The notes below the pieces were generated by a model, which did no database searches, was not told the DNA's origin, and saw nothing but the letters and a program-made list of their open reading frames with translations. The position numbers and the translations under genes are program-made. From positions 8,130 through 72,129 of the forward strand of contig JAFZQN010000080.1 of the NCBI GenBank assembly GCA_017620375.1: a DNA stretch of 64,000 nt, in the 5' to 3' direction. Of this stretch, positions 13,381 to 49,518 are shown piece after piece. The DNA is from Lachnospiraceae bacterium. Lineage in GTDB: Bacteria > Bacillota > Clostridia > Lachnospirales > Lachnospiraceae. Position 1 is the stretch's first letter, and each line of letters opens with the position of its first letter.

Positions 13381-13602
13381 TTAGAACCAAGGCCAAAACC
13401 ACCAACTCTTCTTTTTGTAATGGACCGTCTTCATACCAGTATATCCACCACATACATTTTTCGGTTGTTCTACTTCTTCATAACCGATAACCTCACCGGT
13501 AGAAGAAAGAATCTCCTTGGGTGTGGGAGGATTGTAAGGTATACATTCAGTTGCAGAAAATGTAAGAACCTCAACCTCTGGAGTTACATATGCCTTCTTC
13601 AT
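13381..13602 (-). CDS. Lasso-type precursor-like peptide P1 (73 aa) with Trp-rich C-terminus
   Basis: MKKAYVTPEVEVLTFSATECIPYNPPTPKE...HYKKKSWWFWPWF. I take the ATG at 13602 (RBS GGAGG, complement of 13611-13615) rather than the track's GTG at 13611. The leader has the YxxPxVxxL...T motif shared with P2-P5. Confidence 0.6.
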   Translation of the reverse strand: MKKAYVTPEVEVLTFSATECIPYNPPTPKEILSSTGEVIGYEEVEQPKNVCGGYTGMKTVHYKKKSWWFWPWF

Positions 13603-14365
13603 TTGTTTCACCTCCGTTCTTATTTAAAATGAATTTATTGTTAATTATAGTATTGTAAACTACTTGAGCCGCTTCTGGATCCATATTACATTCAAGTTTG
13701 TAAAAGGGAAGGCTTCCAACCAATTTAAGATATAAATTCATGACTAGAGCTTTTTGACTAGGATTTGTTGGTACATGAGTACGCTTCATTAACATGTCCA
13801 ACGATTCTTTAACTCCGAGCGGTTTAACTTGGTTTTCTGTAGCTCTTTCAAGTTTTACTATCGCTTTTAGTGGTGCAGCAATGTTGTTGCTAAGATGATG
13901 CTTTCCGTTCCATGGAGTACCATAGACTTTCATTTCATCAACACGGATCAGAGGCTTGTCGTCATTGATCATCTGAACTCTTGAACCGAATACTTCTCGC
14001 CAAAGTCTGGTGTGAGTACTTTTCCCGGTGCCGCTTTTGGCGGTAAAGATTATTCCTTTGCCATCTATGGCAAGCGCGGATCCGTGAAGCATTATTGCGT
14101 TATACTCGCTTAATTTGTCTGCAATTAGAATATGAATTGCATTGTTTTCTAGAAAACTTTTAGGATAAGCGACCTTTGGACTTCCTTCTGACTCATTTAA
14201 GACATCAAAATCCGCTTGAACACCAATAATGGTCTCTTCGTCAGGTTCAACCGAAAAAGCAGGTTTTTTTGAAGTATAATATCCTGTAAAAAATGTCTTA
14301 TTCTCTTCATACTTGCATTTGACATTTATAGGAATGCCGGCAAGTTCAATACTAAAATCTTCCAC
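13571..14365 (-). CDS. HPr-kinase-related P-loop kinase, divergent from the three PadeK-like paralogs
   Basis: 264 aa with 'MLHGSALAIDGKGIIFTAKSGTGKSTHTRLW'. GTG start with RBS AGGAG. Its 3' end overlaps the P1 start by 32 nt. Confidence 0.6.
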   Translation of the reverse strand: MEDFSIELAGIPINVKCKYEENKTFFTGYYTSKKPAFSVEPDEETIIGVQADFDVLNESEGSPKVAYPKSFLENNAIHILIADKLSEYNAIMLHGSALAIDGKGIIFTAKSGTGKSTHTRLWREVFGSRVQMINDDKPLIRVDEMKVYGTPWNGKHHLSNNIAAPLKAIVKLERATENQVKPLGVKESLDMLMKRTHVPTNPSQKALVMNLYLKLVGSLPFYKLECNMDPEAAQVVYNTIINNKFILNKNGGETNEEGICNSRG

Positions 14366-14453
14366 AGAAGCTCCTGATAACTAATTCTTTTGTATAAAAA
14401 CTCAAGTCGAAATAATATATCCCAAATGAATTAACGATTATTTTCATTAGTAT

Positions 14454-14481
14454 ATTATATTATCAACATGCATTTGTGCAA
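14454..14481 (-). promoter_or_regulatory. Promoter candidate for the kinase-P1 unit
   Basis: Minus strand: TTGCAC, 16-nt spacer, TATAAT. Confidence 0.4.
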
Positions 14482-14650
14482 GACTTCTAACAGAATTGTA
14501 ATAAATTTACCTATGAAACAATACTCAAAGTGATTAGGGATATGAAGATGACGAAGATCAAAGACGCCGGCTATATTCCCTTCTATATTAGGACAAGAGT
14601 TACAGACAGCCGACAAAAATGGTAGATTTTAACACAGTCTATGAGATAGT

Positions 14651-14701
14651 AAAGAATAAAGCCCCCAAAGCCCTTGTTATACAAGGATTTAGAGGGCTTT
14701 T
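14651..14701 (-). terminator. Terminator-like hairpin downstream of the module-1 cyclase
   Basis: Minus strand: aaagccct...ccttgt-ata-acaagg...gcttt, followed by a G/T-rich tail (gggggctttattcttt). Confidence 0.4.
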
Positions 14702-14816
14702 GACTTCAAAAATTGTCAAAAACAGGGTATTAAAAGTGATTGCAAGTATTTTGACAGAGTTATTAAGAAAGCGATCAGTTAAGGAGTAACCGAGAAAGAT
14801 CATTAATGAGAACTTT

Positions 14817-16812: not shown

Positions 16813-17025
16813 TTATGATCTTGCACCTGTGGTTGCTTCTTCTTTACCATACTCGGTAGTAGCCTGCTGCTGATTCTGAGGAAGTGCACACTGCCATGTA
16901 GCTGCTTCCTGAACATAGCCATAAAGAGTACCATCGGACTTTATTTCCTGATAAACATTAAAATCACCATTAGCGGTCTCGCCAATGTTAAGAACTACAA
17001 CTTCTGCATTTTTCCAAGTCTTCAT
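16813..17025 (-). CDS. Lasso-type precursor-like peptide P2 (70 aa), C-terminal Ser
   Basis: MKTWKNAEVVVLNIGETANGDFNVYQE...EEATTGARS. RBS GGAGG 8 nt upstream. Leader motif WxxAxVxxL...T(-2). Confidence 0.65.
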   Translation of the reverse strand: MKTWKNAEVVVLNIGETANGDFNVYQEIKSDGTLYGYVQEAATWQCALPQNQQQATTEYGKEEATTGARS

Positions 17026-17161: not shown

Positions 17162-18067
17162 TTAAATCAAGGATAGAACCTTGTGATATATTTCGTCTAG
17201 TGTATCTTTGTTCTCGGGTCTTATAATAAGGTATATCTTAAATTTTGAGGCTGTTTTCATACACATATCAATAACTTCCTTTGAATTCTCCCATGACCCT
17301 TTAAGACGGTGTAAGAACAGATTATCCCGTATGGACATAAAACATTCGAATCCGCTTAACTTTCGTATAGTTAGTTCTTCTACAGGGGCCTTAATAATAT
17401 AAAAAAAAGAATTTGCTTTTTGAGGATTGTATTCGAAAATATCGTTAACAGGAACAAGATATTTGTCTTTATCTTCGTTTATGTAAATAAGATTTTTTTT
17501 ATCAAGTCCTCTTTTTTCAATCTCATTTGAACAAAGCTTTTGGAAAGGGAAAGCGGGATATACCAGACATTCATCATTGCTAAAGCGAATACCGGCTACA
17601 TCGTCTGCTAACAGTCTTAGTCTGGTTTCCAATAATTTTCCGGCAAGGGAAGACTTCCCTGCTCCAGGGGTACCCGAAATTAGAACAGCCCCTTCTTTTG
17701 TTGATACAGCACTGCAATGAATGGTTAATACGCCTCTTTGTAAGAGTGCGATGGAAAGACAAAACCCTGTAATCCATACAGAAATCGTATCATAATCGTA
17801 ACCTTCTTTTATTTTGACCCAAATTTCGTTGCCGTTTTGTATCAGATAGAACCCACCCCTGTTATAAAAAGCGGATTTATTAAGGCCTATTTCATATAAT
17901 TTTTCTACGGCATCATGTTCCGCCAAAAAACGGATAACATCAGTTTCAACATCTCTTTCTCTTACTGTTATCACATCTTGCACTGTATCTGAATCTCCTG
18001 CCGGAACGAGAAGATTCAATTCAAATTCAGACTCCAATATAATACCATAAATTTTATATCTGTGCAT
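17162..18067 (-). CDS. HPr-kinase-like P-loop kinase (PadeK-type lasso precursor kinase candidate), module 1
   Basis: 301 aa with 'YKIYG' N-terminus, 'IHCSAVSTKEGAVLISGTPGAGKSSLA' and 'YPAFPFQKLC'. Paralogous to 40987-41910 and 48586-49518. Confidence 0.75.
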   Translation of the reverse strand: MHRYKIYGIILESEFELNLLVPAGDSDTVQDVITVRERDVETDVIRFLAEHDAVEKLYEIGLNKSAFYNRGGFYLIQNGNEIWVKIKEGYDYDTISVWITGFCLSIALLQRGVLTIHCSAVSTKEGAVLISGTPGAGKSSLAGKLLETRLRLLADDVAGIRFSNDECLVYPAFPFQKLCSNEIEKRGLDKKNLIYINEDKDKYLVPVNDIFEYNPQKANSFFYIIKAPVEELTIRKLSGFECFMSIRDNLFLHRLKGSWENSKEVIDMCMKTASKFKIYLIIRPENKDTLDEIYHKVLSLI

Positions 18068-18316: not shown

Positions 18317-19705
18317 ATGAGGGGCAGTCACAGACATGCTAATATAAATATTGCGTATATGTGCTTTGATGTACTGTTTGGTATTTTGGCATATATTATC
18401 GCGTCGGCTATAGATAAGGGCAAGAGTTTTGCAAATATAGATTACCTATTGGTATGTACAAGCTCAGTATTACTTATCATTGTATTTAATAAAAACAAGA
18501 GACTTTATGATACGACCTTATTCTTTTATATAGACAGATGGCTTAGTTATTTGACCAGGTCATTTATTGCTGCGAATCTGGTTGTAACAATACTTGCTTT
18601 TTATGTTGGGCATTGTGGAGTAGAAACCAGGTTTTATGTTGTATTTCTTGTAACAGAGTATCTTCTGTTAATTACTAGTGCTTTTTTTACAAGATGGGTG
18701 CTCAGAAGAACAAGGATGTATGCTGTTAGGACACTGCTTGTAGGCACTAAGACAGATTACGAGAGAGTAATACGTTTCTTAAAGCACAATAGTATGAGTG
18801 CTGAGGTTATAGGATATATATCCGAGACAACAACATATCCTGAGGGAGATGATACACCGTTCCTCGGGACTATAGACGATCTTGAAGAAGTAGTCCATAA
18901 GAATTCCATAGATCAGGTATTCTTTATGCAGCACAGAAAAAACCCGGTAAACCTTGAGAAACATGTTGAGTTGTGTATGGAACTGGGTTTGGTGGCTCGT
19001 GTCTTGGTACACCCGTATCGTATAGGTCGTGCCCATTCTGTTATATGCAGTATAGGAACATATCCTGCCGTAACATATCATAACGTAGTGTTGAACGTGT
19101 ATGCAAAAGCGGCAAAGAGGATATTTGATGTTATATTCAGCATAGTCGGTATAATAGTGTTTGCAATACCGATGCTGATCACAGCTATCGCTATAAAGCT
19201 TGATTCAAAAGGCCCTGTTATATTTAAACAGACAAGAGTAGGGCTTAACGGCAGACATTTTAAGATGTTTAAATTCAGAAGTATGGTACAGGATGCCGAA
19301 GCAAAAAAGAAAGAGCTGATGGAAAAAAATAAAGTATCCGGCGGCTTGATGTTTAAAATGGATGATGACCCCAGGATCACTAAGGTAGGTAAATTTATAC
19401 GTAAGACATCGATAGATGAGTTGCCACAGTTCTTTAACGTTTTGTTCGGTACTATGAGTTTGGTAGGTACCCGTCCGCCCACAGTGGATGAGGTATCAAA
19501 GTATGATACAAGGCATTGGAGAAGGCTTTCAGTTAAGCCCGGTATAACCGGCATGTGGCAGACTAGCGGTAGAAGCGAGATAACGGATTTTGAAGAAGTA
19601 GTTGCTCTTGATAAGGAGTATATAGACAACTGGAGTATGTGGCTGGATATCAAGATCCTTTTCAAGACTGTAATTCAGGTATTTATGAGAAAGGGAGCAT
19701 GTTAA
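18317..19705 (+). CDS. Initiating polyprenyl-phosphate sugar phosphotransferase (WbaP/EpsL-type bacterial sugar transferase)
   Basis: 462 aa with N-terminal TM helices and the C-terminal motifs 'KRIFDVIFS...GPVIFKQTRVGLNGRHFKMFKFRSM...DELPQFFNVLFGTMSLVGTRPP'. Confidence 0.85.
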   Translation: MRGSHRHANINIAYMCFDVLFGILAYIIASAIDKGKSFANIDYLLVCTSSVLLIIVFNKNKRLYDTTLFFYIDRWLSYLTRSFIAANLVVTILAFYVGHCGVETRFYVVFLVTEYLLLITSAFFTRWVLRRTRMYAVRTLLVGTKTDYERVIRFLKHNSMSAEVIGYISETTTYPEGDDTPFLGTIDDLEEVVHKNSIDQVFFMQHRKNPVNLEKHVELCMELGLVARVLVHPYRIGRAHSVICSIGTYPAVTYHNVVLNVYAKAAKRIFDVIFSIVGIIVFAIPMLITAIAIKLDSKGPVIFKQTRVGLNGRHFKMFKFRSMVQDAEAKKKELMEKNKVSGGLMFKMDDDPRITKVGKFIRKTSIDELPQFFNVLFGTMSLVGTRPPTVDEVSKYDTRHWRRLSVKPGITGMWQTSGRSEITDFEEVVALDKEYIDNWSMWLDIKILFKTVIQVFMRKGAC

Positions 19706-19717
19706 AGCTATAATACA

Positions 19718-20701
19718 ATGATTTCTGTAGTGGTTCCTATATACAAAGTAGAAAGATTCTTAAACAAATCTATAGAAAGTTTGTTAAATCAGACATATAA
19801 GGATTTTGAATTAATCCTTGTAGATGATGGTTCGCCGGATAATTGTCCCCAAATATGTGATGACTGGGAGAAAAAAGAACCTAAGATAAAGGTTTTTCAC
19901 AAAAAAAATGAAGGTTTGTCTTCTGCTCGGAACAGCGGTATCGAACACGCAAGTGGAGAGTATATTATTTTCCCGGATCCCGACGATTGGGTGGAACCGG
20001 ATTATTTAGAAAGGTTGATAAACCTTAGAGAAGAATTTAAAGCGGATTTAAGCATTTGCGGTCATTATCATGGTACAAATATATATGATCCTGAAGCTGA
20101 ATTGATAGTTCTGACAATGGAGGAAGCACTCGAAAAACTGATGATGCCACACTCTTTCTGTGGGTATACATGGAATAAACTATATAACTTGGATATCATT
20201 AAAAGAAATCAGCTTCGATTTGATGTTGAATTAGGAATGGTTCAGGATTTACATTTTAATGTTCGGTATTTTCAGTATTGTGAGAAAATAGTTTATGATC
20301 CGGTTCCTTTATATCACCATACGATAGAAAATGGGGTAACATCGCGCAATACTCCGCTAACAACACGAAAAATAAGCGGATTATTAACTTATAAGAAAAT
20401 TGCAGACATGACTCACGGAAATTATCCGAATATTGAGCGAATATCTTACTGTTCTCTTTGTAAAATGTGTCTTGATTATGTTGATATATACTATAAAACC
20501 AAGATGAATTCAAAAGAAATACTTAATCTTTTACAGAGCAATTTTGTAAAATATAAAAAGTATTTTTATAATGGTAAAGCATTTTCTGTTAGATTTAAAC
20601 GTTTTTCAAGACTTATGGTAATACATCCACGATTATACTGGTATGCCCGCCGTTTTTATTGGCGCTTCTTGGTACCAAATAAAAAGAAAGACACAACATG
20701 A
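19718..20701 (+). CDS. Family 2 glycosyltransferase
   Basis: 'ISVVVPIYKVERFLNKSIESLLNQTYKDFELILVDDGSPD'. Confidence 0.85.
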   Translation: MISVVVPIYKVERFLNKSIESLLNQTYKDFELILVDDGSPDNCPQICDDWEKKEPKIKVFHKKNEGLSSARNSGIEHASGEYIIFPDPDDWVEPDYLERLINLREEFKADLSICGHYHGTNIYDPEAELIVLTMEEALEKLMMPHSFCGYTWNKLYNLDIIKRNQLRFDVELGMVQDLHFNVRYFQYCEKIVYDPVPLYHHTIENGVTSRNTPLTTRKISGLLTYKKIADMTHGNYPNIERISYCSLCKMCLDYVDIYYKTKMNSKEILNLLQSNFVKYKKYFYNGKAFSVRFKRFSRLMVIHPRLYWYARRFYWRFLVPNKKKDTT

Positions 20702-21822
20702 AGATAATTATATATAATAATCTCATCTATAGCGGAGGCGTGGAAAGACTTTTTCCGTTACTGGCAGAAAGTTTAAGACAGAGAGGACATGAGATTACGG
20801 TATTAGCCTCATCTGGAAGTAAGGAAGAGTTTGATACAGCGTTTTCTACAGAAATACGTTGTATTTGTACGGGATTGCCTTGTAAGAAGTTTGACAGCAA
20901 GTTAAAATCAGGATTATATTTTTTAAAAAGAAAGGCATACAAAATAATCCTACTTTTTAGAGGACTGATAAAAAAATATGATGTTGTAATTGCTTTTAAA
21001 GAAGGGCATGTTATAAAGAATGCATTAAAAATCAGAGCAAAGAGGAGATATGCCTGGATTCATGCGGATCTAACTATTTTCTGCAATACTTTAGGATTTA
21101 CAAAACCATTTTCAAGCATTGAAGATTTTAAAAAGTGTCTGGAAAAGTATGATAAAGTTGTATGTGTCTCTGAAACTACAAGAAGAAGTGTTATAGAGAT
21201 GGTCGGAGATACTGGGAATTTGTGTGTAAGATATAATCCTATAGATTGGCAAAGAATACGCACACAGGCACAGACAAAAGCGGAAATTACTAAAAATCAA
21301 AATTGTCCTTTAATTGTTTCTGTCGGAAGGCTTGATCCGATAAAAAATTATATGCTGCTATTAGAAGCTGGTAAAATCCTTTATGAAAAACAAGAGTTTG
21401 AAATGTGGATATTAGGGGAAGGACCCGAGAGAAATAAAATTGAGAAGTATATACAAGATAATAACTTGGAGTTTGTCAGGTTATTAGGCTTCCAACATAA
21501 TCCGTTTCCGATTTTAAAACAAGCAGATCTGTATGTAAGTACATCGCTTAGTGAGAGTTATGGACTTTCAGTTCAAGAAGCCTTAATTCTTGGAGTTCCT
21601 GTTATAGCAGTAAAGTGTCCCGGGATACTTGAAGCATGGGATCCCGGATTCGGAAAACTGATTGATAACTCCGCGGAAGAATTAGCAGATACCATATATC
21701 AGTTATTTAATAATACTGAGCAATTAGAGAGTTATCGCAAGACGATAGAAGATAAATATCCTTTAAAGCAGGTGTTTGAACAAAGGGTAGATGAAATATG
21801 TAGATTAATAGAAGAATTATAA
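20698..21822 (+). CDS. GT-B glycosyltransferase (GT4/Glycos_transf_1 type)
   Basis: 374 aa with C-terminal 'SLSESYGLSVQEALILGVPVIA'. Confidence 0.8.
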   Translation: MKIIIYNNLIYSGGVERLFPLLAESLRQRGHEITVLASSGSKEEFDTAFSTEIRCICTGLPCKKFDSKLKSGLYFLKRKAYKIILLFRGLIKKYDVVIAFKEGHVIKNALKIRAKRRYAWIHADLTIFCNTLGFTKPFSSIEDFKKCLEKYDKVVCVSETTRRSVIEMVGDTGNLCVRYNPIDWQRIRTQAQTKAEITKNQNCPLIVSVGRLDPIKNYMLLLEAGKILYEKQEFEMWILGEGPERNKIEKYIQDNNLEFVRLLGFQHNPFPILKQADLYVSTSLSESYGLSVQEALILGVPVIAVKCPGILEAWDPGFGKLIDNSAEELADTIYQLFNNTEQLESYRKTIEDKYPLKQVFEQRVDEICRLIEEL

Positions 21823-21857
21823 GAATAACGCAAATATAAGTATTCTTGGAGAGAAGT

Positions 21858-22862
21858 ATGTGGAAGCCTAGCGTGAGTGTCATTGTTCCGGTATACAATA
21901 CGGAGAAATATCTTAGGAAGTGTTTGGATTCTTTGGCAGATCAAACATTAAAAGATATTGAGATAATAATTATTGATGATGGGTCAACGGATTCATCTCC
22001 GGTGATCATTAAAGAATATACAGAGAAAGATTCGAAAAGATTTATAAGCCTGGCTCAGGAAAACAGCGGGCAAGCAGTTGCCAGAAACAAAGCCTTAAAA
22101 ATGTGTACCGGTGAGTATATCGGTTTTTTGGATTCTGATGATTTTGTTCGTACGGATATGTTTGAACGTATGTACAATGCGGCCGTGGCTGAAGATGCTG
22201 ATTATGTGGCATGCGGATATACAGATATAACCTATGATGAAGCTGGTAATGAGATAGAATTGGAGCATTATGTACACTCAAAACTTGCTTATAAGACTAA
22301 GGATATGTTTTTTGGAGCACTCGCTTCTCCGTTTCTTCATTTATATAAGAAAGAAGTGCTTATTGAATCCGGTGCGGATTTCCCGGAAGGGGTGGTTTAT
22401 GAGGATACGGCATTTTATCTGAATATTATACCTTATATTAAAAAGCTTGCAGTAATAGATGAACCGTTGGCGTACAGAGTAAGACGCAGTAATTCTACTA
22501 TGTCAACATTTAAAGCTGCTAAGGTAAGACAGATTTTTAAGGTACTTGATTATTCGCTGGATTATTATAAGAAAAAAGGGTTTTATGAAGAATATCAAAA
22601 AGAGATGGAGTATTTCTGTGTAAGAGTATTGCTCTGTAGCTCTATGCAACGCATCTGTAAAGTTGAAGACAGTAAAGAAAGAAAAGCTCTTCAAAATGAA
22701 ACTCTTGATTACCTTTATCGTAATTTCCCGAACAGAAAATCTAACAAATATTTTAAGGGCGGCTTTCAACATTTATATATGAAGACATTTAACAAATTGA
22801 CAGCGCCTTTTTATGCATGGTTGTTAAGAAAAAAAGCACGTAGGGAAAGAGAGTATATCTGA
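21858..22862 (+). CDS. Family 2 glycosyltransferase
   Basis: 'VSVIVPVYNTEKYLRKCLDSLADQTLKDIEIIIIDDGSTD'. I prefer the ATG at 21858 (RBS GGAGAG) over the track's TTG at 21846. Confidence 0.85.
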   Translation: MWKPSVSVIVPVYNTEKYLRKCLDSLADQTLKDIEIIIIDDGSTDSSPVIIKEYTEKDSKRFISLAQENSGQAVARNKALKMCTGEYIGFLDSDDFVRTDMFERMYNAAVAEDADYVACGYTDITYDEAGNEIELEHYVHSKLAYKTKDMFFGALASPFLHLYKKEVLIESGADFPEGVVYEDTAFYLNIIPYIKKLAVIDEPLAYRVRRSNSTMSTFKAAKVRQIFKVLDYSLDYYKKKGFYEEYQKEMEYFCVRVLLCSSMQRICKVEDSKERKALQNETLDYLYRNFPNRKSNKYFKGGFQHLYMKTFNKLTAPFYAWLLRKKARREREYI

Positions 22863-23806: not shown

Positions 23807-23835
23807 CATTTTATTAGTGTCGGGAGGTGATAAGT

Positions 23836-25968: not shown

Positions 25969-26049
25969 TTGTTGATTAATAAGATATTATATGTTAGTAT
26001 ATCATTCTTGGGGAATTTTAATAAAAATATAGATTAGGAGTATAGCCGG

Positions 26050-26814: not shown

Positions 26815-26857
26815 GATGATTATTCTGAAAGAATAAATTAAAAGAGAGGAAAAAACA

Positions 26858-27778: not shown

Positions 27779-27789
27779 GGAGACAGGCT

Positions 27790-34990: not shown

Positions 34991-35009
34991 ACAGGAAATA
35001 TTTGATACA

Positions 35010-36440: not shown

Positions 36441-36476
36441 TTTATAGATAGAGGGTTACATTAAGGGGATAGGTTG

Positions 36477-40986: not shown

Positions 40987-41910
40987 ATGAAAAAATATCG
41001 TTATAAAATATATGGTCTTATAGTTGAATCTGAATTGGAAATAGCACAAGCAACATCACTTTCAGTTGATAGGAAATCTTTAGAAAATGATGTTGAAATA
41101 GTATTTGGTGAAATACCCGAAAGATTAAGAAAAGCAGGAGAAGAAGGGTATGGATCATGGATCAACGGGTTTAAGGCTGCATGGTTTAATACGAAAGGTA
41201 CGGCACAATACCTTATTACCGGAGGAAATAAGATCGTAGTCCGTCCTTATCCTGATCCGGATGAAAAGTTGATGGTCTCAATGATACTCAGCGCAGGAAT
41301 GTCATTGATCCTTCTTCAAAGAAATGAGCCTGTTTTTCATGGAAGCGTTATAGAAAAAGAAGGATATGCATATATAATATCAGGTACCAGTGGAGCCGGA
41401 AAATCAACAGTAACTATGGAACTGTTAAAAGACAATGCTTGGCTGTTTATGGCTGATGATACCGTGCGATTGTCATTGGATAATGGGAAAATTCATTGTT
41501 ATCCAACATATCCACAACAAAAAGTATGTCGTGATCTGGCCTGCCGCATGGGGCTTGACTTAAGCGATATGATTTATATCGATGAGGGAAGAGATAAATT
41601 TGCATACAAAAGAACGGACAGATATTATGATCATACTGCAGAGCTGAAGAGTATATATATAATTAACAAAAGTAAAAATGTCTGTGAAGTAAAATATGAG
41701 AAATTACAGGGAATGGATTATGTTCATGCGTTTATAAATAACTTGTACCTTTCGGATAATTATAAACGAGATACGGGAGTTCCGAATGAATTTATGAAAC
41801 TGATAAATCTATTATTTCATCAGGCAGATATTTATCTTATTACTCGCCCTGAAGAAGGGGATACCGTAAAAAATGTTGTAGATACAATAAGATTCTTACA
41901 AAGTTGTTAG
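40987..41910 (+). CDS. HPr-kinase-like kinase (PadeK-type), module 2
   Basis: 307 aa with 'YKIYG', 'FHGSVIEKEGYAYIISGTSGAGKSTVT' and 'YPTYPQQKVC'. Confidence 0.8.
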   Translation: MKKYRYKIYGLIVESELEIAQATSLSVDRKSLENDVEIVFGEIPERLRKAGEEGYGSWINGFKAAWFNTKGTAQYLITGGNKIVVRPYPDPDEKLMVSMILSAGMSLILLQRNEPVFHGSVIEKEGYAYIISGTSGAGKSTVTMELLKDNAWLFMADDTVRLSLDNGKIHCYPTYPQQKVCRDLACRMGLDLSDMIYIDEGRDKFAYKRTDRYYDHTAELKSIYIINKSKNVCEVKYEKLQGMDYVHAFINNLYLSDNYKRDTGVPNEFMKLINLLFHQADIYLITRPEEGDTVKNVVDTIRFLQSC

Positions 41911-41997: not shown

Positions 41998-42183
41998 ATG
42001 AAGACATGGACAAGTCCTGTAGTAGAAGAACTTGATGTTAAGGTTACTGAGTATGATCCCAATGGTGGTACTAGACCCGATGCATTTCTTAAAGATGAGC
42101 ATACAGGAGAAATAACAAAGTACTTATATGGACCTTCTGCAGGAGATGCAGGTGATCCTACAATTGTTGGTACAGAGGCATAA
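41998..42183 (+). CDS. Lasso-type precursor peptide P3 (61 aa)
   Basis: MKTWTSPVVEELDVKVTEYDPNGGTRPDAFLKDEH...IVGTEA. RBS AAGGAGG. Confidence 0.75.
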   Translation: MKTWTSPVVEELDVKVTEYDPNGGTRPDAFLKDEHTGEITKYLYGPSAGDAGDPTIVGTEA

Positions 42184-42205: not shown

Positions 42206-42394
42206 ATGAAGAAGTGGGAAAACCCTGAGATGGTTAAACTTAACATTAATATGACAGCATATGGTGATGATACAAGTAAGGAGCCTGATTGGACTATTTA
42301 TTCAATCGGCGGAGATAAGATTCTTGATCAGACATTTGGACCTTCAGGATCAGAACATCCTGCAGATGCTGTTGTTAAACAGACACAGCCTTAA
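42206..42394 (+). CDS. Lasso-type precursor peptide P4 (62 aa)
   Basis: MKKWENPEMVKLNINMTAYGDDTSKEPDW...VVKQTQP. This is an internal ATG of the 88-aa track ORF, with RBS GGAGG 5 nt upstream. Confidence 0.75.
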   Translation: MKKWENPEMVKLNINMTAYGDDTSKEPDWTIYSIGGDKILDQTFGPSGSEHPADAVVKQTQP

Positions 42395-42517: not shown

Positions 42518-42781
42518 ATGGACAAAGATACAAAAATAGTATTAAAAAAGAAACTTAATGTTACAGATCTTGCCGGTGAGAAGGTAATGGTAGATTTTGA
42601 TAGTGGTAAGTATTTCCTTATTAAGGGTGTCGGAAACGATATATGGGAGATGATCCAGAATGAAATTACCCCCAACGAGATAATAGACAAACTGCTTTCT
42701 GAGTACGATGTAAACAGGGAGGAATGTGAGAAGTCTGTTATGGAATTCCTTAAGAAAATGGAAGGCTATAATTTTATTTAA
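42518..42781 (+). CDS. PqqD-family leader-recognition protein (lasso B1 / RRE)
   Basis: 87 aa with 'VTDLAGEKVMVDFDSGKYFLIKGVGNDIWEMI...EECEKSVMEFLKKM'. Confidence 0.8.
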   Translation: MDKDTKIVLKKKLNVTDLAGEKVMVDFDSGKYFLIKGVGNDIWEMIQNEITPNEIIDKLLSEYDVNREECEKSVMEFLKKMEGYNFI

Positions 42782-42793
42782 CTGGTATAAAAA

Positions 42794-44473
42794 ATGGGAA
42801 AACTGAAAGAAGCATGGAAAGACAGGGATAACCAATATAAATATGCTAAATGGCTGATGAAGTATTCTAAGCCATATATGGGTCGTATTACACTTATGAT
42901 GGCGTTTAGCATTATTTCAACGGTGGTCTCTCTATGGATGGTGCAGATATCCAAAAATATTATAGATAATGCTACCGGTGGCAATAAGTTTGTCACTCTG
43001 CTTATTGTATATTTTTGTTTAATGATCGCTATGCAAGTAGTGGGTATAGTATCTACACTATTATCAGCGATACTTAGTGAGAAATTCTCATTTGGTATTA
43101 GGAAGCAGATATATGATAAGATTATCAGATCGCATTGGATGGATGTAAAGAGGTATCATACGGGCGATCTTATGACCAGGCTTACCAGCGATGCAGGAGC
43201 TATAGCAGATGGTATCATTGGAACAATACCCAATATCATAATCTTGTTTGTAGAACTGTTGATGGTGTTTGTTACATTATTTATTTATTCACCGTTACTT
43301 GCAGTATTTGCAATGCTTGTTGCACCTGTTGCGGCTTTGGTATCCTTCTTCCTGGGAAAGAAGCTGAAAAAGCTGCAAATAAAGGTTCAGGAATCGGAAT
43401 CTAATTATCGCTCATTCCTTCAGGAAAGTTTGGCAAATCTTCTCGTGGTAAAATCATTTGCAAATGAGGACTATTCTGTTGACAGGCTTACTACTCTTAG
43501 AGAAGAACGTTTCAAATGGGTCTTTAAAAAGACCAAGATGAGTATAGCCAGTAGTACTGTGATGTCTATGACATTTCAGCTGGGATATATTGTAGCCTTT
43601 GCCTATGGAGCATGGCAGATTTCTACCGGACAGATCACATATGGTACCATGACGGTGTTTCTTACTTTGGTAAACAGGGTACAAAGTCCGATAATCGGTT
43701 TGGCGCAACAGATTCCGAGAGTAGTATCGGTACTAGCTTCAGCGGGACGAGTTATAGAGTTACAGAATATTCCCGTAGAGGAACGTTTACCGGAAGTAGT
43801 GACCTCTGACAAGATCGGTGTGGATATAGAAAATCTTACTTTTGGATATACAGATGAGATCGTACTTGATAATGTGTCCTTAAATATCAAGCCGGGTGAA
43901 TTTGTTGCAATTATCGGTGAATCCGGCATAGGAAAAACTACTTTGCTGCGTATTATTATGTCTTTCATGGGTAATTATACAGGAAAAGTGGACTTCTTTG
44001 ATGAGAATGGGTTAACGGACCCTGCAAATGCCAATACAAGAAGATTTATATCGTATGTACCTCAGGGTAATACCTTATTCAGCGGTACAGTCAGAGAAAA
44101 CATACGCATGGGTAAACTTGATGCTACGGATGAAGAAATGTGGGATGCATTGAAGCTTTCCGCAGGATATGACTTTGTCAAGGAGTTACCTAACGGTCTT
44201 TATACTGTCATAGGTGAGAGAGGACATGGTATCTCGGAAGGTCAGGCACAGCGTATAGCTATAGCGAGAGCTTTTGTACGAAAAGCTCCGCTGCTTATCC
44301 TGGATGAAGCTACATCTGCTCTTGATGAGAATACTGAGAAGGAAGTAATAAAAGGTCTTCAGCAGCTTGAGCCGCGTCCGACCTGTATAGTTGTTACTCA
44401 TAGAAAGAGTATACTTACTTATTGTGACCGAGAGATCAAGATTGAGAACAAAAACATGGAAGAGATACAGTAA
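42794..44473 (+). CDS. ABC exporter, fused TMD-NBD (McjD-like lasso export/immunity candidate)
   Basis: 559 aa with Walker A 'GESGIGKTTL', signature 'ISEGQAQRIAIARA' and Walker B 'LLILDEATS'. No C39 peptidase domain. Confidence 0.85.
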   Translation: MGKLKEAWKDRDNQYKYAKWLMKYSKPYMGRITLMMAFSIISTVVSLWMVQISKNIIDNATGGNKFVTLLIVYFCLMIAMQVVGIVSTLLSAILSEKFSFGIRKQIYDKIIRSHWMDVKRYHTGDLMTRLTSDAGAIADGIIGTIPNIIILFVELLMVFVTLFIYSPLLAVFAMLVAPVAALVSFFLGKKLKKLQIKVQESESNYRSFLQESLANLLVVKSFANEDYSVDRLTTLREERFKWVFKKTKMSIASSTVMSMTFQLGYIVAFAYGAWQISTGQITYGTMTVFLTLVNRVQSPIIGLAQQIPRVVSVLASAGRVIELQNIPVEERLPEVVTSDKIGVDIENLTFGYTDEIVLDNVSLNIKPGEFVAIIGESGIGKTTLLRIIMSFMGNYTGKVDFFDENGLTDPANANTRRFISYVPQGNTLFSGTVRENIRMGKLDATDEEMWDALKLSAGYDFVKELPNGLYTVIGERGHGISEGQAQRIAIARAFVRKAPLLILDEATSALDENTEKEVIKGLQQLEPRPTCIVVTHRKSILTYCDREIKIENKNMEEIQ

Positions 44474-45320
44474 ATGTAGTGCCTTGACCTAAAGTACTTT
44501 CGGCATTTATAGTTCCTCCGTGCCGTTCCACTATAGCGCGTGCGATGGAAAGACCGAGACCGCTGCCGGAGGTTTCTCCGGGGGTACGGGCATTTGAAAC
44601 AGTATATGTTCTGGTAAATATATGGGGTAGTGCTTCGGGCGCTATCCCATTTCCATTATCAGATACGGATATTATAAGTTGTGCGCTGGAAGGTGAAAAA
44701 ACACTAGGATTCTCTACGTTATTCTTAGAACTAGGTTTATAGATATGAGCACTAAGTCGAATGTAGGTTGCCTTTTCTCCGGCATATTTAGCTGCGTTTG
44801 TAAGTAAATTATCAAGGACGCGTACGATTTTCTGTGGTTCGATATTTATAACGCAGTTTAAATCTGCAGGGACGTCCAGTAGCATGTCAAACCGGTCATA
44901 TCGGGAATCTATGATAGCATCATAGTAGTATTCTTCCAGAAATGTACAGGCATCAACAGATTGAATCTTTAATGGACGGGCTTCATCTTCGACATTGAAA
45001 AGATAATACATATCGTTGATGAGTTCCTCTAAAGAGGATGTACGTCTGTCAATAAGCGAAAAAAGTTTCCTGCTTTCATCAATGGAAAGATTATCGGAGG
45101 TCAATGCCAAATCTATTGCACTGCGGATGGCAGTGATCGGAGCTCTTAAGTCATGAGAGATATTGGCAAGCATCATTTCTCTTTCTTTCTGGAGAGTCCG
45201 GAGCCTGGAATGAGCCTCTAACAATTCACTTGTCAATTCTTCTACGGATTTTGTTTCAAGGTTTGGTGATTGGAAAGCTTTGCTCATTTTTCGTATCATG
45301 CCGCAGACATGCTTACACAT
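44436..45320 (-). CDS. Histidine kinase core (DHp + HATPase) without recognisable sensor or TM region
   Basis: 294 aa with H-box 'ISHDLRAPITAI', 'DNGNGI' and 'GSGLGLSIA'. No RBS at the ATG at 45320. The 3' end overlaps the convergent exporter gene by 38 nt. Confidence 0.65.
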   Translation of the reverse strand: MCKHVCGMIRKMSKAFQSPNLETKSVEELTSELLEAHSRLRTLQKEREMMLANISHDLRAPITAIRSAIDLALTSDNLSIDESRKLFSLIDRRTSSLEELINDMYYLFNVEDEARPLKIQSVDACTFLEEYYYDAIIDSRYDRFDMLLDVPADLNCVINIEPQKIVRVLDNLLTNAAKYAGEKATYIRLSAHIYKPSSKNNVENPSVFSPSSAQLIISVSDNGNGIAPEALPHIFTRTYTVSNARTPGETSGSGLGLSIARAIVERHGGTINAESTLGQGTTFTVSLPCFCSQS

Positions 45321-45402
45321 CGGGGTCGTGCCTGGAGCGACACCGATGGAAGTTTGAAAATGTAACTCTCAAACTTTATCTCCTAAGAAAAAACAGTATG
45401 GC

Positions 45403-46095
45403 TCACTTTACTATGAATTTATACCCTTTTGACCAAACAGTTTCGACCATGTTATATAGGGTATAATCAATATTCATTTTTTTGCGGAGCCTACTTACAT
45501 TTACCATTATCGTACGTCTGTCAAGTTCGCTGTATGTTCCGAATAGAGACTTACCAAGTTCTTCGAAGGTGATGGTCTGGTTCGGATGAGAGCAGAAATA
45601 CATTAGAATATCATAATCGCGATTGGTGAGTTCCAAGTCTTTATCCATATAAAAAGCCTTATGAAGAGCCATGTCAATCTTGAGATCGCCGAAAACAAGA
45701 GTGTTTTGGTCGGTTTTTGGGGCGGTGAGCATACCTGCGCGCCTTAATTGAGCGTCTATGCGGGCTTTAAGCTCTTTTAGGCTAAAGGGTTTAATGATAT
45801 AATCGTCGCCACCGGTTACAAGTCCTTTTATTTTGTCATCTTCGGATACTTTACCTGTGAGGAATATGATAGGGATGGCGGAAAATTGTCTGATCCTGCT
45901 ACATAGTTCATATCCATCCATGCCGGGCATCATAACATCAAGGACTATAAGGTCCGGATGTTTGGCCTTTGCGATATTAAGACCCAGTAGGGGATTTGAA
46001 GCGGTATAAACTTTAAAATCCTGCGAAACAAGGTATTTTTTGTTCATCTCCAAAACTGCAGCATCATCATCAATCAGTAAAAGTGTGGCAGCCAT
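45403..46095 (-). CDS. OmpR/PhoB-family response regulator
   Basis: 230 aa with 'LLLIDDD', 'DLIVLDVMMPGMDG' and a C-terminal winged helix. Confidence 0.88.
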   Translation of the reverse strand: MAATLLLIDDDAAVLEMNKKYLVSQDFKVYTASNPLLGLNIAKAKHPDLIVLDVMMPGMDGYELCSRIRQFSAIPIIFLTGKVSEDDKIKGLVTGGDDYIIKPFSLKELKARIDAQLRRAGMLTAPKTDQNTLVFGDLKIDMALHKAFYMDKDLELTNRDYDILMYFCSHPNQTITFEELGKSLFGTYSELDRRTIMVNVSRLRKKMNIDYTLYNMVETVWSKGYKFIVK

Positions 46096-46322: not shown

Positions 46323-46535
46323 TTATTGTTCTCCCCATCCGCCTGTCCAAAAAGGATTATTCTCTTTAACTTCTTTTTCTGATTTACCATTTCCTTCCCA
46401 ATAGGGGTTATGGCATCTTCCGAGGTCTTCATCATATTCTTCATAACTTTCTTCGTTAGTATCTACCCAATAAATACCATTTGTTGTATCTTTAACATTG
46501 ATCTCATCTAAAACAGGTTTCTTCCACTCTTTCAT
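46323..46535 (-). CDS. Lasso-type precursor-like peptide P5 (70 aa)
   Basis: MKEWKKPVLDEINVKDTTNGIYWVDTNEE...FWTGGWGEQ. RBS GGAG 9 nt upstream. Confidence 0.65.
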   Translation of the reverse strand: MKEWKKPVLDEINVKDTTNGIYWVDTNEESYEEYDEDLGRCHNPYWEGNGKSEKEVKENNPFWTGGWGEQ

Positions 46536-46624
46536 TTAGATACACTCCAATCTTTATCATATTTTAAAAACTATTTAAAGTTTATCACAGGCATATAAAA
46601 AAGAAAAGAATTATAACAAAAATG

Positions 46625-48574
46625 TTACCTTTTGCAGGTCTGATATAAGATGCAATTATATATCGCAATCACGTATTTTAAGAAACTTCGTTGTCTTTTG
46701 TCATTAAAATCCATGTTTTTCAGGTAATCCGGAATCAATTTAAGGTTAATTGATTTTGCTAAGTTTTTTGGAACATCTTTAAAGGTTTCCGATAATAACG
46801 GACAAAGCGCTCCCCAATCTCTTTGTATGCGGTTGACATAGTCGGTATTTAAGTAAGCATGCTGCTGCCGGTTTTCCAGTATTGAAGGAGGCAATAAATT
46901 GCGAAAACCATGGCGGGTGAGCCATCTTGTTTCTCCGTTAAAAGCAAAATAGGAATAAGGTAACCTCTTGCAAAAATCGATGATCCTGATATCTTTTGTC
47001 GGATCGCGCAATATCATATTGTGAGCAAGCCCCATTTTTGTCTCGAACGCACCCAGATACATAAGCAGAGCTTTACTTTGCAGATATTCCGGATAAAATA
47101 CATGATCTATGAACTGCCTGCTCAACGTCCGTTTATCAACGGTAAACCGCTTTTCTAACTGATAGTTTTCAAGGATATAAGGTAATAAAAACGGATTCTG
47201 AGGTACAAACGAGGATGGATCAAAGCTTGCCGGAGCATAGTTTGAAAACATTGAAAGACATTTCCTGAGAGCCTTTTCAGGTTCAATAGTCTGATGTTGG
47301 CAATATTTATCCAGATAGGAAATGAGATGTTCCAGGTCTTTAGCCATATATAAGTCATATAATATATGATGTAATTCTCCAAAGGAGACGGTGGAATTAC
47401 CGAAGATTCCATTAAGTATGATGCGACAGTTTTTCTTCCCCGCTTCTTTACAGATTTCAAGGTGGTTGGGAATAGCACCGCTTTTATATGGCATTTCGAG
47501 AATAATCAGGCATTCTGATACGTCTTCAAAGCAGTTTTTTCCTTGATTTGACAAAAATTCGGGTTTGATATTCGGGTACATGTTACACAAGTCCAGGACG
47601 GGTTGTGACTCATCGAAAAGGACATTCGTATCATGCACCGTAGTTGTTTTTAATGCAGGATGAGGCGTGAAAGTAAAGGAATACAGATTCTTCCCGTACC
47701 CGGCAAGGTTTTGACTTGCAAGTATAGCGATACCGGAGGAATCCAGACCGCTGCTTAATGCAATCCCGACTTCTCCGGTGGTATTAACAGCATCACTTAT
47801 ACAAGTACGATAGAGCTCCATAAACATGTCAGAACAAAGTTCGGGATCTTCCGGCATTTTGGAATTAACATCAATATTATTGTATTCTTTTGCACAAGTT
47901 GTATCCCCGGAAAAATATTTTATTGTTCCTGGAGGCATCATATATATGTTCTTATAGGGCGTCTCTTGCGGAACAATATAGATCAGGGACGGATCTGACA
48001 AAAGAAAGTCTTTGAAATAATCCTCGTTGTATTCTGTTTTGTAATCTGTTTCCGATTCCAGAAAAAGCCTGATTGGGTTTAAAAGGGTTGAAAATACTAT
48101 TACATCAGGAGTCTGGGTATAATACAGACAACGGGCACTTACAGGGTCACTGATCAGAGACAATCTGCTTGTAGTTTTATCAAAGATGGCTATGCTATAG
48201 AGTCCTGTGAAATGGGAGAAAGCTTCTTCGCCCAAAGTTAGATATGCTCTGTACATCAGTTCATCATCAGAGATCTTTTTTAGATCGTTAACGGAATCTG
48301 AAGTGTTCAGAAGACTGTATATTTCGTCACGGTTATCCAGCAGGCAGTCGGCGGCGAAGATAAGATGCTTATCTGTATCCCGGATGGGAGAGAGGGGAGA
48401 AGGGGATTCTGTAATATGTTGAATGCCACAGCCCACATAGATGTCTTTTGAGAGAAAATGAGCGTAACTGTCAACCTTACAGCTATTACTGTAAGCATTT
48501 AAAAAGATTTCATGTATGCGGTCTGTAAGATGGATCTTGTTATTCTTGGGTATAACTCCCCAAATAGCTGACAT
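46625..48574 (-). CDS. Asparagine-synthetase-like lasso cyclase (C protein), module 3
   Basis: 649 aa with 'MSAIWGV' (no Cys2) and PP-loop variant 'ALSSGLDSSG'. RBS AAGGAG. Confidence 0.8.
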   Translation of the reverse strand: MSAIWGVIPKNNKIHLTDRIHEIFLNAYSNSCKVDSYAHFLSKDIYVGCGIQHITESPSPLSPIRDTDKHLIFAADCLLDNRDEIYSLLNTSDSVNDLKKISDDELMYRAYLTLGEEAFSHFTGLYSIAIFDKTTSRLSLISDPVSARCLYYTQTPDVIVFSTLLNPIRLFLESETDYKTEYNEDYFKDFLLSDPSLIYIVPQETPYKNIYMMPPGTIKYFSGDTTCAKEYNNIDVNSKMPEDPELCSDMFMELYRTCISDAVNTTGEVGIALSSGLDSSGIAILASQNLAGYGKNLYSFTFTPHPALKTTTVHDTNVLFDESQPVLDLCNMYPNIKPEFLSNQGKNCFEDVSECLIILEMPYKSGAIPNHLEICKEAGKKNCRIILNGIFGNSTVSFGELHHILYDLYMAKDLEHLISYLDKYCQHQTIEPEKALRKCLSMFSNYAPASFDPSSFVPQNPFLLPYILENYQLEKRFTVDKRTLSRQFIDHVFYPEYLQSKALLMYLGAFETKMGLAHNMILRDPTKDIRIIDFCKRLPYSYFAFNGETRWLTRHGFRNLLPPSILENRQQHAYLNTDYVNRIQRDWGALCPLLSETFKDVPKNLAKSINLKLIPDYLKNMDFNDKRQRSFLKYVIAIYNCILYQTCKR

Positions 48575-48585
48575 TGAATGACTCC

Positions 48586-49518
48586 TTAACTTTCATTGAC
48601 GATTTTTTCAATCAGTTCCGCTATCCCTTCAGTGGAATCTGAGTTGTTTCTTCTTACAATCTGGTACATAGGACAAAGAGAAGAAAAACGAAGCGTGGGT
48701 TCAGCCAGTTCTTTTTCATGCAGATTTTCTATCAGGCAGGCATGCAGAAAAAGAGCTTGTTTACATGCTTCCCATGTGGTGATACCCTGTAGTTTACACC
48801 ATGCAAATGCCGGAGGGGTTTGAAGATGGTCACCATCTATTGGGAGTGTATAGGATACTGCCAGATGGATCATGGCATGGACCGGTGCCTCTTTTTCATA
48901 AAAAGAAGGTGCCGGGACCAGATATTTATCTTTCTTTTCATTAATATATTCTAAGTTGTTCTTATCAAGTTTTTGAGATTCTATCACATTTCGGCAGAGC
49001 TTTTGGTAAGGAAATGCAGGATAGGCCATAGGGCGATCGGGGTGAAAAGGATCGACCACGGTCATATCGTCGGACATGAGTCTGAATCCTTTTTTTAACA
49101 GCGCGTTTGTGATAGTGGATTTACCGCTCCCGCTTGGACCTCCGATCAAAACGGCACGCCCGCCCTTTGTGATACAGGAACAGTGAAAGGCCAGTTGTTT
49201 ACGTTGCAAGAACAGCATGGCCATTCCGAATCCCAGGATATAGGAAACAAGAGATTTGGAATATGGATGCGGTTTGGGCTGATATATTATTTTCTTGCCG
49301 TTTAAGATCAATAAATTGCAACCGTCGTTTGAAAGGAAACCGATATCGGAAGAATAATGATAGGATTTACCGGGCATTTGATCATAGGGTGCAGGCATGC
49401 TGCCCAGCATAACATATATGGCCTGATCCTCAGCACAATCCGTTGGTTCTGTTTTTTGTAATATCGGCATTGCGAGGTCTGATATTACAGACTGCCCGTA
49501 TATCTTATAATAATACAT
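48586..49518 (-). CDS. HPr-kinase-like kinase (PadeK-type), module 3
   Basis: 310 aa with 'YKIYG', 'FHCSCITKGGRAVLIGGPSGSGKSTIT' and 'YPAFPYQKLC'. Confidence 0.78.
   Translation of the reverse strand: MYYYKIYGQSVISDLAMPILQKTEPTDCAEDQAIYVMLGSMPAPYDQMPGKSYHYSSDIGFLSNDGCNLLILNGKKIIYQPKPHPYSKSLVSYILGFGMAMLFLQRKQLAFHCSCITKGGRAVLIGGPSGSGKSTITNALLKKGFRLMSDDMTVVDPFHPDRPMAYPAFPYQKLCRNVIESQKLDKNNLEYINEKKDKYLVPAPSFYEKEAPVHAMIHLAVSYTLPIDGDHLQTPPAFAWCKLQGITTWEACKQALFLHACLIENLHEKELAEPTLRFSSLCPMYQIVRRNNSDSTEGIAELIEKIVNES

Follow-up and report, generated by a model that had tools for sequence, protein, structure and literature searches.

Whether three modules for lasso-type peptides work with a single pair of leader-processing proteins is the question raised by a 64,000-nucleotide stretch of a Lachnospiraceae bacterium genome (NCBI GenBank assembly GCA_017620375.1, contig JAFZQN010000080.1, positions 8,130 to 72,129 of the forward strand), hereafter the window, whose numbering is used throughout unless a related locus is named. 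The three modules code for precursors (P1 to P5) of peptides that are made on ribosomes and modified after translation (RiPPs), for lasso-type macrolactam synthetases or cyclases (C1 to C3), and for kinases of the HprK family (K1 to K3), while a leader-recognition protein (B1), a leader peptidase (B2), a nucleotidyltransferase (N), and an exporter (D) were found only in the second. Comparison with related loci suggests that the region is probably a composite, leader-sharing RiPP supercluster arranged around a capsule or exopolysaccharide (EPS) locus of a rumen Lachnospiraceae chromosome, whose single B1/B2 pair would serve the satellite modules in trans. The gene inventory comes from an open reading frame (ORF) listing, translation, and scans with Pfam and NCBIfam hidden Markov models (HMMs), and the genomic view is that of the 64-kb window. 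All the genes named in an earlier annotation of this DNA, hereafter the original prediction, were present where it had placed them.

Three cyclases and one B1/B2 set

We identified one complete operon of the paeninodin/pseudomycoidin type, module 2, on the + strand and in the order N-B2-C2-K2-P3-P4-B1-D. It begins with N, a PsmN-type nucleotidyltransferase (37446 to 38618; NTP_transf_5, Pfam E value of 1.7e-46), and the transglutaminase-like leader peptidase B2 (38633 to 39121; Transglut_core3 and lasso_biosyn_B2), and it ends with B1, a PqqD-family RiPP recognition element (RRE) of the paeninodin type (42518 to 42781; PqqD and lasso_PqqD_Bac), and D, an MsbA-like ABC exporter (42794 to 44473; ABC_membrane and ABC_tran). 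B1 scores 79.4 bits against NF033536, for which the cut-off is 80, and matches PDB entry 9x90_B, a "lasso peptide biosynthesis PqqD family chaperone," with an E value of 3e-13. Both B genes are sole copies, as searches of the 64 kb with tblastn and iterated HMMs, followed up to an E value of 10, gave no further copy of either; the B1 and B2 proteins expected of split-B lasso clusters belong to module 2 and are missing from modules 1 and 3. Each of the satellite sets, K1-P2-C1 in module 1 and K3-C3-P5 in module 3, has a precursor, a macrolactam synthetase, and a Ser kinase and nothing more. The lasso-type inventory of the window is then three cyclases, three PadeK-like kinases, four W-type precursors, and a single NTP_transf_5/B2/B1/ABC exporter set, so the predicted coexistence of one such set with three cyclases was borne out by both HMMs and tblastn.

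The three cyclases, C1 (14817 to 16727, − strand), C2 (39149 to 40957, + strand), and C3 (46625 to 48574, − strand), share Asn_synthase and GATase_7 domains, and among the NCBIfam models all three are best fitted by NF033535, that of the lasso isopeptide cyclase (E values of 5e-49, 2e-58, and 1e-43, respectively), ahead of asn_synth_AEB, with the scores for both models under the curated cut-offs. We regard C2 as a lasso cyclase, C1 as a lasso-cyclase-like macrolactam synthetase, and C3 as lasso-cyclase-like. They had been predicted to lack the Cys2 nucleophile of AsnB while keeping the PP-loop, and both features are seen in 3/3, with an N terminus of the form MS[AS]I[WF]G, in which residue 2 is Ser, and the motif LS[GS]GLDS. 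Glutamine-dependent AsnB enzymes they are not, as they lack Cys2 and reach only 89 to 124 bits against TIGR01536/NF006949, where the cut-off is 267. Pairwise identity among C1, C2, and C3 is 23 to 27%, which rules out a recent tandem duplication. In a neighbor-joining tree of 71 cyclases, they fall into three separate clades, each with its own conserved family of cores: the C1 clade goes with T-x-x-G-x6-E cores (26/27 precursors, 22 of the 27 with a C-terminal Ser), the C2 clade with T-x-Y/[DS]PxGGxxxDG...GPSSGNSG, and the C3 clade with YWVDTNEE...DEDLGxCHNPYWxGNG...NNPxWxGGWG (in core sequences here and below, the slash marks the predicted cut). Cyclases and cores thus co-vary, and the three clades are old.

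The kinases K1 (17162 to 18067, − strand), K2 (40987 to 41910, + strand), and K3 (48586 to 49518, − strand) are PadeK-like members of the HprK family (Hpr_kinase_C and HprK_rel_A) of about 300 to 310 amino acids. The original prediction counted four HPr-kinase-like proteins, and this number has to be lowered to three, as the fourth (13571 to 14365) belongs to the ScmC family PF27840 and is described below. Among the motifs attributed to the remaining three, YKIYG and YP.[FY]P.QK.C were found in 3/3, while the pattern G.SG.GKS does not fit K1, which has the P-loop GTPGAGKS. The notion of a private cyclase and kinase for each core is correct insofar as the cyclase clades follow the core families, and it fails for P3 and P4, which share C2 and K2, and for P1, which has no cyclase. 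Neither is the kinase private to its core, as in a close strain (loci L089 and L100, which lie on the same contig of 231 kb) the K1 ortholog adjoins a nonorthologous cyclase that is 22% identical to C1; orthologs of K1 with 69% amino acid identity are found in both L067 and L100. Strict coinheritance of kinase and cyclase was considered and is only partly true, with a Mantel r of 0.55 (reached by 0/999 permutations) and a Spearman coefficient of only 0.14. An HprK-like kinase is present in 3/3 modules, and only P2 ends in Ser, the last residues of P3, P4, and P5 being A, P, and Q.

A leader HMM run on the window recovered exactly five precursors, all with Shine-Dalgarno sites, which agrees with the five leader-bearing small ORFs of the original prediction. 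Only four of them are of lasso type, because the leader of P1 is of the Y type and a ring acceptor is missing from it. The four W-type precursors are P2 (70 amino acids; 16813 to 17025, − strand; MKTWKNAEVVVLNIGETAN/GDFNVYQE...GARS), P3 (61 amino acids; 41998 to 42183, + strand; ...KVTEY/DPNGGTRPDAF...), P4 (62 amino acids; 42206 to 42394, + strand; ...NMTAY/GDDTSKEPD...), and P5 (70 amino acids; 46323 to 46535, − strand; ...KDTTN/GIYWVDTNEE...DEDLGRCHNPYWEGNG...NNPFWTGGWGEQ). The start of P4 is most likely the ATG at 42206, as placed by its Shine-Dalgarno site, and P3, P4, and P5 are also called as genes by public gene callers. Hairpins are common downstream of RiPP precursor genes, and we found a 10-bp hairpin with a T-run, either an attenuator or a terminator, directly after P2 (16773 to 16796, − strand), a 12-bp hairpin after P4 (42417 to 42444, + strand), and a terminator-like hairpin after P5 (46251 to 46286, − strand).

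The predicted pattern of a conserved leader joined to divergent cores holds for P2 to P5, which share the motif M-K-x-W-x-x-P/A-x4-L/I-x-h-x-x-T (the W type of Bacillota) and have mutually unrelated cores (16 to 26% identity). If the leader is cut three residues past the Thr, the rings would be G1-E8 in P2, D1-D9 in P3, G1-D9 in P4, and G1-E9 in P5. With the Thr at position −2 instead, as in pseudomycoidin, which has an A1-D9 ring (PMC6993621), they would have 9 to 10 residues, and the ring of P2 would be Asn1-Glu9.

Probable use of B1 and B2 in trans

From this arrangement we infer a pathway in which all four W-type precursors would be bound by the single PqqD-type RRE, B1, and cut by the single B2 in the same register, three residues past the conserved Thr. 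The freed core would then be closed by its co-evolved cyclase, with C1 joining Gly1 to Glu8 in P2, C2 acting on the xPx..PD cores of P3 and P4, and C3 acting on P5. The HprK-like kinases would phosphorylate Ser residues, the C-terminal one in P2 and probably an internal GPS/GNGxS site in P3 to P5, and the NTase and the ABC pump would finish and export the products. That one leader-recognition and protease pair acts in trans, as had been suggested for this locus, seems to us the likelier account, and its support is comparative, coming from the leaders and from the single B1/B2 of multicyclase loci. Leader identity is 58% between P2 and P4 and 47% between P5 and P3, and only 37% between P3 and P4, which lie in the same operon and must already share B1 and B2. 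The satellite leaders are therefore as near to the module 2 leaders as these are to each other, which argues for a shared B1/B2.

Related loci were collected by searching one genome per species with a kinase alignment, which gave 77 loci, almost all from Lachnospiraceae, and were annotated for C, K, B1, B2, N, and D by iterated HMMs and for precursors by the leader HMM. Copy numbers were compared across the 48 nonredundant loci of at least 15 kb. Two cyclases were present in 12 of the 48, the pair being 22 to 28% identical in 11/12, and more than one B1 or more than one B2 was found in none of the 48, including all 12 multicyclase loci. One of the two-cyclase loci, L010, comes from an isolate, Waltera hominis CLA-AA-H183. 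A metagenome scan with an alignment of the C3 clade gave contigs (L092 to L096 and L104) on which a K-C-A and a C-K-A triad (A being the precursor) accompany one D-B1-B2-N set. The triads that the original prediction proposed to look for in related genomes were in this way found across Lachnospiraceae genomes and gut metagenomes, and the multicyclase layout is a recurrent architecture and not a one-off.

Some of the clusters recovered have other layouts. A widespread type from human-gut contigs (L110, L116 to L128, and L134) adds to an N-B2-C-K-A-B1-D cluster a further kinase and a precursor in convergent orientation (MKHWTQPELMELKVSETACGWFPWYPGHPGGGGHHPGHHPGGGDC...FLS) and has no second cyclase; the extra K-A pair, for instance at 15030 to 16190 of L119, recurs across L110 to L134, and its product may be a linear phosphorylated peptide that uses the lasso chassis. 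Precursors of the form CxCQGG[TM]SPC...H (L016, 13315 to 13638, + strand; L047, 3430 to 3711, + strand; L049, 3398 to 3683, + strand; L021, 7623; and L028, 7599) adjoin apparent K::N fusions, that is, ORFs matching both the kinase and the NTase HMMs, and have no adjacent cyclase.

Several observations weigh against a B1/B2 pair shared by the whole window. The leaders of the window share just 32 to 58% identity, and the homogenization of leaders within a genome that would be the signature of a common RRE was not seen among the leaders compared, which group by core family and not by genome, so there is no indication of within-genome coadaptation to one RRE. Leader-peptidase pairs can also be narrow, as PsmB1/PsmB2 did not cleave a foreign precursor in which 14 of the 19 leader residues were identical (PMC6993621). 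As for the products, the C-terminal Ser known as the target of PadeK-type kinases is missing from P3, P4, and P5, and the cores, of 42 to 51 residues, compare with 15 to 30 in characterized lasso peptides (PMC6993621), a difference that makes threading uncertain. Two further points, the existence of B1/B2-less systems and the limited stretch of genome in view, lead to separate explanations.

Pseudomycoidin forms without B1/B2 in both Escherichia coli and Bacillus subtilis, where psmCAD alone, even with a leaderless core, yields the product (PMC6993621), and its cluster is of the paeninodin type, with K and N. The satellites might accordingly not need B1/B2, their cyclases requiring only a free core, with housekeeping proteases removing the leader and the B1/B2 of module 2 being irrelevant to them. 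Ten related loci fit this autonomy, as they carry a triad with no B1 or B2 within 10 kb, the P5-type triads of L008 and L012 among them. Against it, the complete leader motif (W/FxxP/A...T), including the Thr, is kept in 11/11 precursors of these B1/B2-less triads, which is hard to explain if nothing reads it, and leader removal was what limited the yield of pseudomycoidin when B1/B2 were missing. Triads of the C1 clade also occur inside ordinary complete clusters (such as the N-B2-B1-D-K-A-C of L048), and C3-like triads adjoin the full set wherever the context is long enough (the window, L089, and L092 to L096). We consider autonomous satellites unlikely, though they are the main alternative.

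The second explanation is that of an ordinary multicluster genome, in which dedicated B1/B2 genes for modules 1 and 3 lie elsewhere and the closeness to module 2 is a coincidence. The view of the genome is limited to 64 kb, beyond which another pair could lie, and it has been argued that the RREs of Bacillota evolved to discriminate between leaders (PMC13381572). Moreover, in relatives (L067, L083, and L100), the place of module 1 holds a PqqD of its own, next to a unit in which ScmC is fused to a radical S-adenosylmethionine (radical-SAM) enzyme. This PqqD is, however, only remotely similar to paeninodin-type RREs (E value of 0.011 versus 3e-13) and accompanies Y-type leaders, and apart from it no further B1/B2 was found in the 64 kb of the window or in the 44 kb recovered of the 231-kb contig of the close strain. 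As two copies of B1 or B2 occurred in 0/12 multicyclase loci, we regard this explanation as improbable. Sharing of the module 2 pair remains the reading with which we continue.

The module 1 slot and the ScmC-type dyad

Module 1 is made of two parts, the lasso-type triad K1-P2-C1 and a nonlasso dyad of an ScmC-type protein, K1b, and P1. The close strain has modules 2 and 3 in synteny with those of the window (96 and 88% nucleotide identity), and P3 and P4 are identical (L089). P5, on the other hand, has the same leader as its counterpart (12040 to 12249 of L089) and differs at many positions of the C-terminal half of the core, which suggests that this satellite core is evolving unevenly and possibly diversifying. 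The module 1 slot of the close strain holds the K1 ortholog together with another cyclase, other precursors, an ScmC::radical-SAM fusion, and a PqqD. As the kinase and the module 2 chassis stay while the contents of the slot differ, we conclude that cassettes of a precursor plus a cyclase are exchanged. The slot lies between the EPS priming transferase, to which K1 is adjacent in divergent orientation, and purE, and has the order K-A-C-A-ScmC-A in L082 and K-A-C-ScmC-A-ScmC::radical-SAM-A-PqqD in L083; in L084, a transposase replaces the radical-SAM unit. B2 was absent, within the sequence recovered, from the slot in 6/6 variants (the window, L067, L082, L083, L084, and L100).

This mosaic between close strains, together with the transposase of L084 and a K1b/P1 pair without the PqqD, radical-SAM, or SpI partners of its relatives, could also mean that recombination at the hypervariable borders of the EPS locus has left the satellites as silent or decaying cassettes that give no product. 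The state of the genes points the other way, as the satellite ORFs are all intact, with Shine-Dalgarno sites and hairpins, and the PP-loop and P-loop catalytic motifs are retained. Precursor orthologs are conserved too, with about 80% identity to P2 in L083 and members of the P5 family in L005, L008, L012, and L089, and the constant leader and variable core of P5 between strains is the usual pattern of an active RiPP. Loss of function is for these reasons a very unlikely explanation.

K1b (13571 to 14365, − strand) is an ScmC/LppK-like P-loop protein (PF27840) with only weak matches to Hpr_kinase_C and ScmC models. It has 5,498 homologs, nearly all of about 245 amino acids and annotated as PF27840 (ScmC), and the HMM of this family scores it at 419 bits; a ScmC HMM gives 49.6 bits to the LppK-like kinase of L074 and 9 to 24 bits to the PadeK-like kinases. 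Within the genome set, K1b is closest to the N-terminal half of a 618-amino-acid ScmC::radical-SAM/SPASM fusion (61% identity; L067), after which come a P1-like peptide and a PqqD. The radical-SAM half of this fusion has no match in the window, and radical-SAM enzymes are present in L067, L083, L087, and L100. A degraded ScmC::radical-SAM gene was rejected as the sole reading of K1b, as standalone ScmC proteins of about 245 amino acids are the norm and L082 likewise has ScmC and a peptide with no radical-SAM enzyme. More distant family members belong to a ScmC-PqqD-radical-SAM-peptide-PqqD cassette in L087 and a ScmC-PqqD-SpI-like peptidase unit in L086, from Sarcina. A search of the literature on ScmC gave nothing relevant.

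The peptide next to it, P1 (73 amino acids; 13381 to 13602, − strand), has the Y-type leader MKKAYVTPEVEVLTFSATEC, the motif ILSSTGEV, two Cys residues, and a Trp/Phe-rich C terminus; its start is most likely the ATG at 13602, with GGAGG 8 nucleotides upstream. Core positions 1 and 2 both lack Gly, and positions 7 to 9 have no fixed Asp or Glu. P1 belongs to a family of the form MKK[TA]YVTPE.E.L.F.ET.C...K[ED]ILSSTGEV...C...KK...W/F-rich tail, whose members always come after a ScmC gene and are conserved in L082, L083, and L084. This makes P1 a candidate substrate of the ScmC-type protein K1b, and the conserved ILSSTGE could be a phosphosite. The dyad stands in the window without its usual partners, a PqqD together with an SpI-like peptidase or a radical-SAM enzyme; no SpI-like peptidase was found there by tblastn with two queries of this type (from L074 and L086). 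P1 is probably a poor client of B1, because paeninodin-type RREs disfavor Y-type leaders, with a Kd of <1 µM for the cognate leader, about 40 µM for a W-to-Y mutant, and 1.5 mM for LppA (PMC13381572).

The gap of 450 bp between C1 and K1b (14366 to 14816) has no leader-type ORF, and relatives hold an extra Pro-rich precursor in this position (L067, 13397; L082, 7550; and L100, 12435), which the window may have lost. ScmC genes fused or adjacent to radical-SAM/SPASM genes were located at 13764 to 15620 of L067, 9580 to 11436 of L083, 12786 to 14642 of L100, and 7001 to 9483 of L087. The Y-leader substrates of these units have conserved cores of the type ...DVGRGRGRGGGCDGVPYHRNxRTFSSGRNSGC or cores rich in Gly and Asn, and a dedicated PqqD follows; they form an uncharacterized RiPP family that has the local leader spacing in common.

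Polysaccharide locus, known systems, and significance

Modules 1 and 2 are separated by about 19 kb of polysaccharide genes, a Wzx/Wzy-type locus (18317 to 37433, + strand) with Bac_transf, four GT2, GT4, BspA-LRR, AAA_31, Wzz, Alg14/13, Wzy, pyruvyl transferase, and Wzx genes, the end of which is only 12 nucleotides from the NTase gene. Modules 2 and 3 are in turn separated by a histidine kinase and an OmpR-type response regulator (44436 to 46095, − strand); the histidine kinase, of 294 amino acids, consists of HisKA and HATPase domains with no transmembrane or sensor domain. Homologs of the histidine kinase and the regulator gave 51 and 43 tblastn matches among about 81 kinase-anchored loci, and EPS genes lie at up to 10 kb in about 35 loci. 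The synteny of RiPP genes, sensor-less histidine kinase, OmpR-type regulator, and the EPS priming transferase gene (Bac_transf) recurs in L010, L019 to L021, L024, L025, L028, L039, L041, L047, L049, L052, L065, and L067. The two-component pair is a conserved companion of the cluster family, and the association suggests a regulatory or functional coupling of the peptides to capsule synthesis, as noted for RiPPs and capsules of Bacilli (PMC13381572).

Among the known systems nearest to this locus are the clusters of paeninodin, from Paenibacillus dendritiformis, and pseudomycoidin, from Bacillus pseudomycoides, class II lasso peptides that are either phosphorylated or phospho-glycosylated (Zhu 2016 as reviewed in PMC8498205; Zyubko 2019, PMC6993621). 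Module 2 has the same set of genes (A, C, an HprK-like K, a split B1/B2, an N of the NTP_transf_5 type, and an ABC-type D), and its precursors resemble theirs in the WxxP leader, the conserved Thr near the junction, and the xG...PD ring region, with the C-terminal Ser of P2 similar to that of the known kinase substrates. Those clusters have one cyclase, while here three cyclases and three kinases correspond to one B1/B2/N/D set, and the host belongs to Clostridia (Lachnospiraceae) instead of Bacilli. Besides the longer cores and the lack of a C-terminal Ser in P3, P4, and P5, the Thr would lie here at position −3 if the rings have 8 to 9 residues. Several precursors served by one B machinery are known from clusters of the caulosegnin type (Hegemann 2013, cited in PMC8498205), where a single cyclase acts on all precursors, in contrast to the very divergent cyclase of each core family found here.

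A second comparison is with the clusters of linear polyphosphorylated peptides (LPPs), which in Bacilli share capsule loci with clusters of the paeninodin-like kind (Popov et al. 2026, PMC13381572). As there, the lasso genes of the window lie within a polysaccharide locus and a second peptide with a Y-type leader is found beside W-type precursors, and K1b is nearer to the LppK-like kinase than to the PadeK-like ones; the ScmC-PqqD-SpI unit of the Sarcina locus is indeed the core of that family. The window differs in lacking an SpI/SipW-like peptidase (LppS) and a second, Y-specific RRE, and P1 differs in its YVTP and F-S-A-T elements, which have a shorter, lasso-type spacing compared to the YxxP...FET of LPPs, and in having no Ser at core position 3. 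Two RREs keep both pathways apart in the LPP systems, while here a single RRE apparently faces four or five precursors. With the ScmC-PqqD-radical-SAM/SPASM cassettes (TIGR04249 SynChlorMet ScmC; PF27840), the locus shares K1b as a family member, and relatives share the ILSSTGE Y-leader precursor; as in L082, the peptide and the ScmC-type protein are all that the window has of such a cassette.

Lasso clusters of rumen Butyrivibrio, Lachnospira, and other Lachnospiraceae have been cataloged in silico (Sabino 2020, PMC7533575; Hungate1000 survey 2026, PMC13289728) and come from the same niche, with a leader of the form MKxWNxPxxxELNINETAxG, cores of 21 to 44 amino acids, and kinase, NTase, GT2/EpsH, and two-component genes. 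These surveys give presence or absence per genome, and neither orphan triads nor cyclase-core clades nor more than one cyclase per B1/B2 are reported in them. We found no paper on multicyclase-per-B1/B2 loci, orphan cyclase-kinase-precursor triads, or cyclase-core clades in a search that left most subscription journals outside. The embedding in a capsule locus, the discrimination between W and Y leaders, and a neighboring Y-leader RiPP family are already published for Bacilli (2026; PMC13381572).

If B1 and B2 do act in trans, the recognition of leaders and the closing of rings would be natural modules that can be separated and exchanged, which would be directly useful for lasso peptide engineering, and functional satellites, not junk, may account for many of the "incomplete" lasso matches that antiSMASH, BAGEL, or RODEO give in Firmicutes of the gut and rumen. 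It would also contrast with the view that Bacillota RREs evolved to keep neighboring pathways apart (PMC13381572). The supercluster offers a testable prediction on the modularity of both steps, and cores of about twice the length of any characterized lasso peptide, together with the ties to a capsule locus and a two-component system, suggest an unexplored physiological role. More tentatively, and with considerable doubt, we can imagine a plug-in RiPP platform in which a resident, capsule-tied chassis (W-leader RRE, B2, NTase, exporter, and sensor-less two-component system) would receive precursor-plus-cyclase cassettes, swapped between strains where the EPS locus ends, and produce strain-specific cocktails of phospho-lasso peptides of 42 to 51 amino acids, with a role in the envelope or capsule rather than in classical antibiosis.

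The three modules lie within a low-GC stretch at about 13 to 52 kb, flanked on the left by purine genes from purL to purE (up to 12921) and on the right by a second two-component system, PSP1, and holB. The nearest species representative is the metagenome-assembled genome RUI091 (Lachnospiraceae), whose K3 is 94% identical, and the sequence of the window is also found in ruminant metagenome assemblies. A 509-amino-acid membrane protein (49677 to 51206) was considered as a private exporter of module 3 and discarded, since its homologs (28 to 33% identity) are generic flippase-like proteins of other loci and do not accompany other C3-clade triads. An Rfam scan of the window gave zero matches. 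The genes of the ABC exporter and the convergent histidine kinase overlap by 38 bp at their 3′ ends (44436 to 44473), and the polysaccharide locus includes a BspA-type leucine-rich-repeat protein of 713 amino acids (23827 to 25968) with homologs near RiPP genes in L024, L055, L058, L063, and L067. Farther to the right, a 555-amino-acid protein (57573 to 59240) combines CE2/GDSL esterase domains with a guanylate kinase domain in an unusual fusion, and two adjacent TIR-domain proteins (59401 to 60666 and 60756 to 62687), the second with MORN repeats, form a possible defense locus unrelated to the supercluster.

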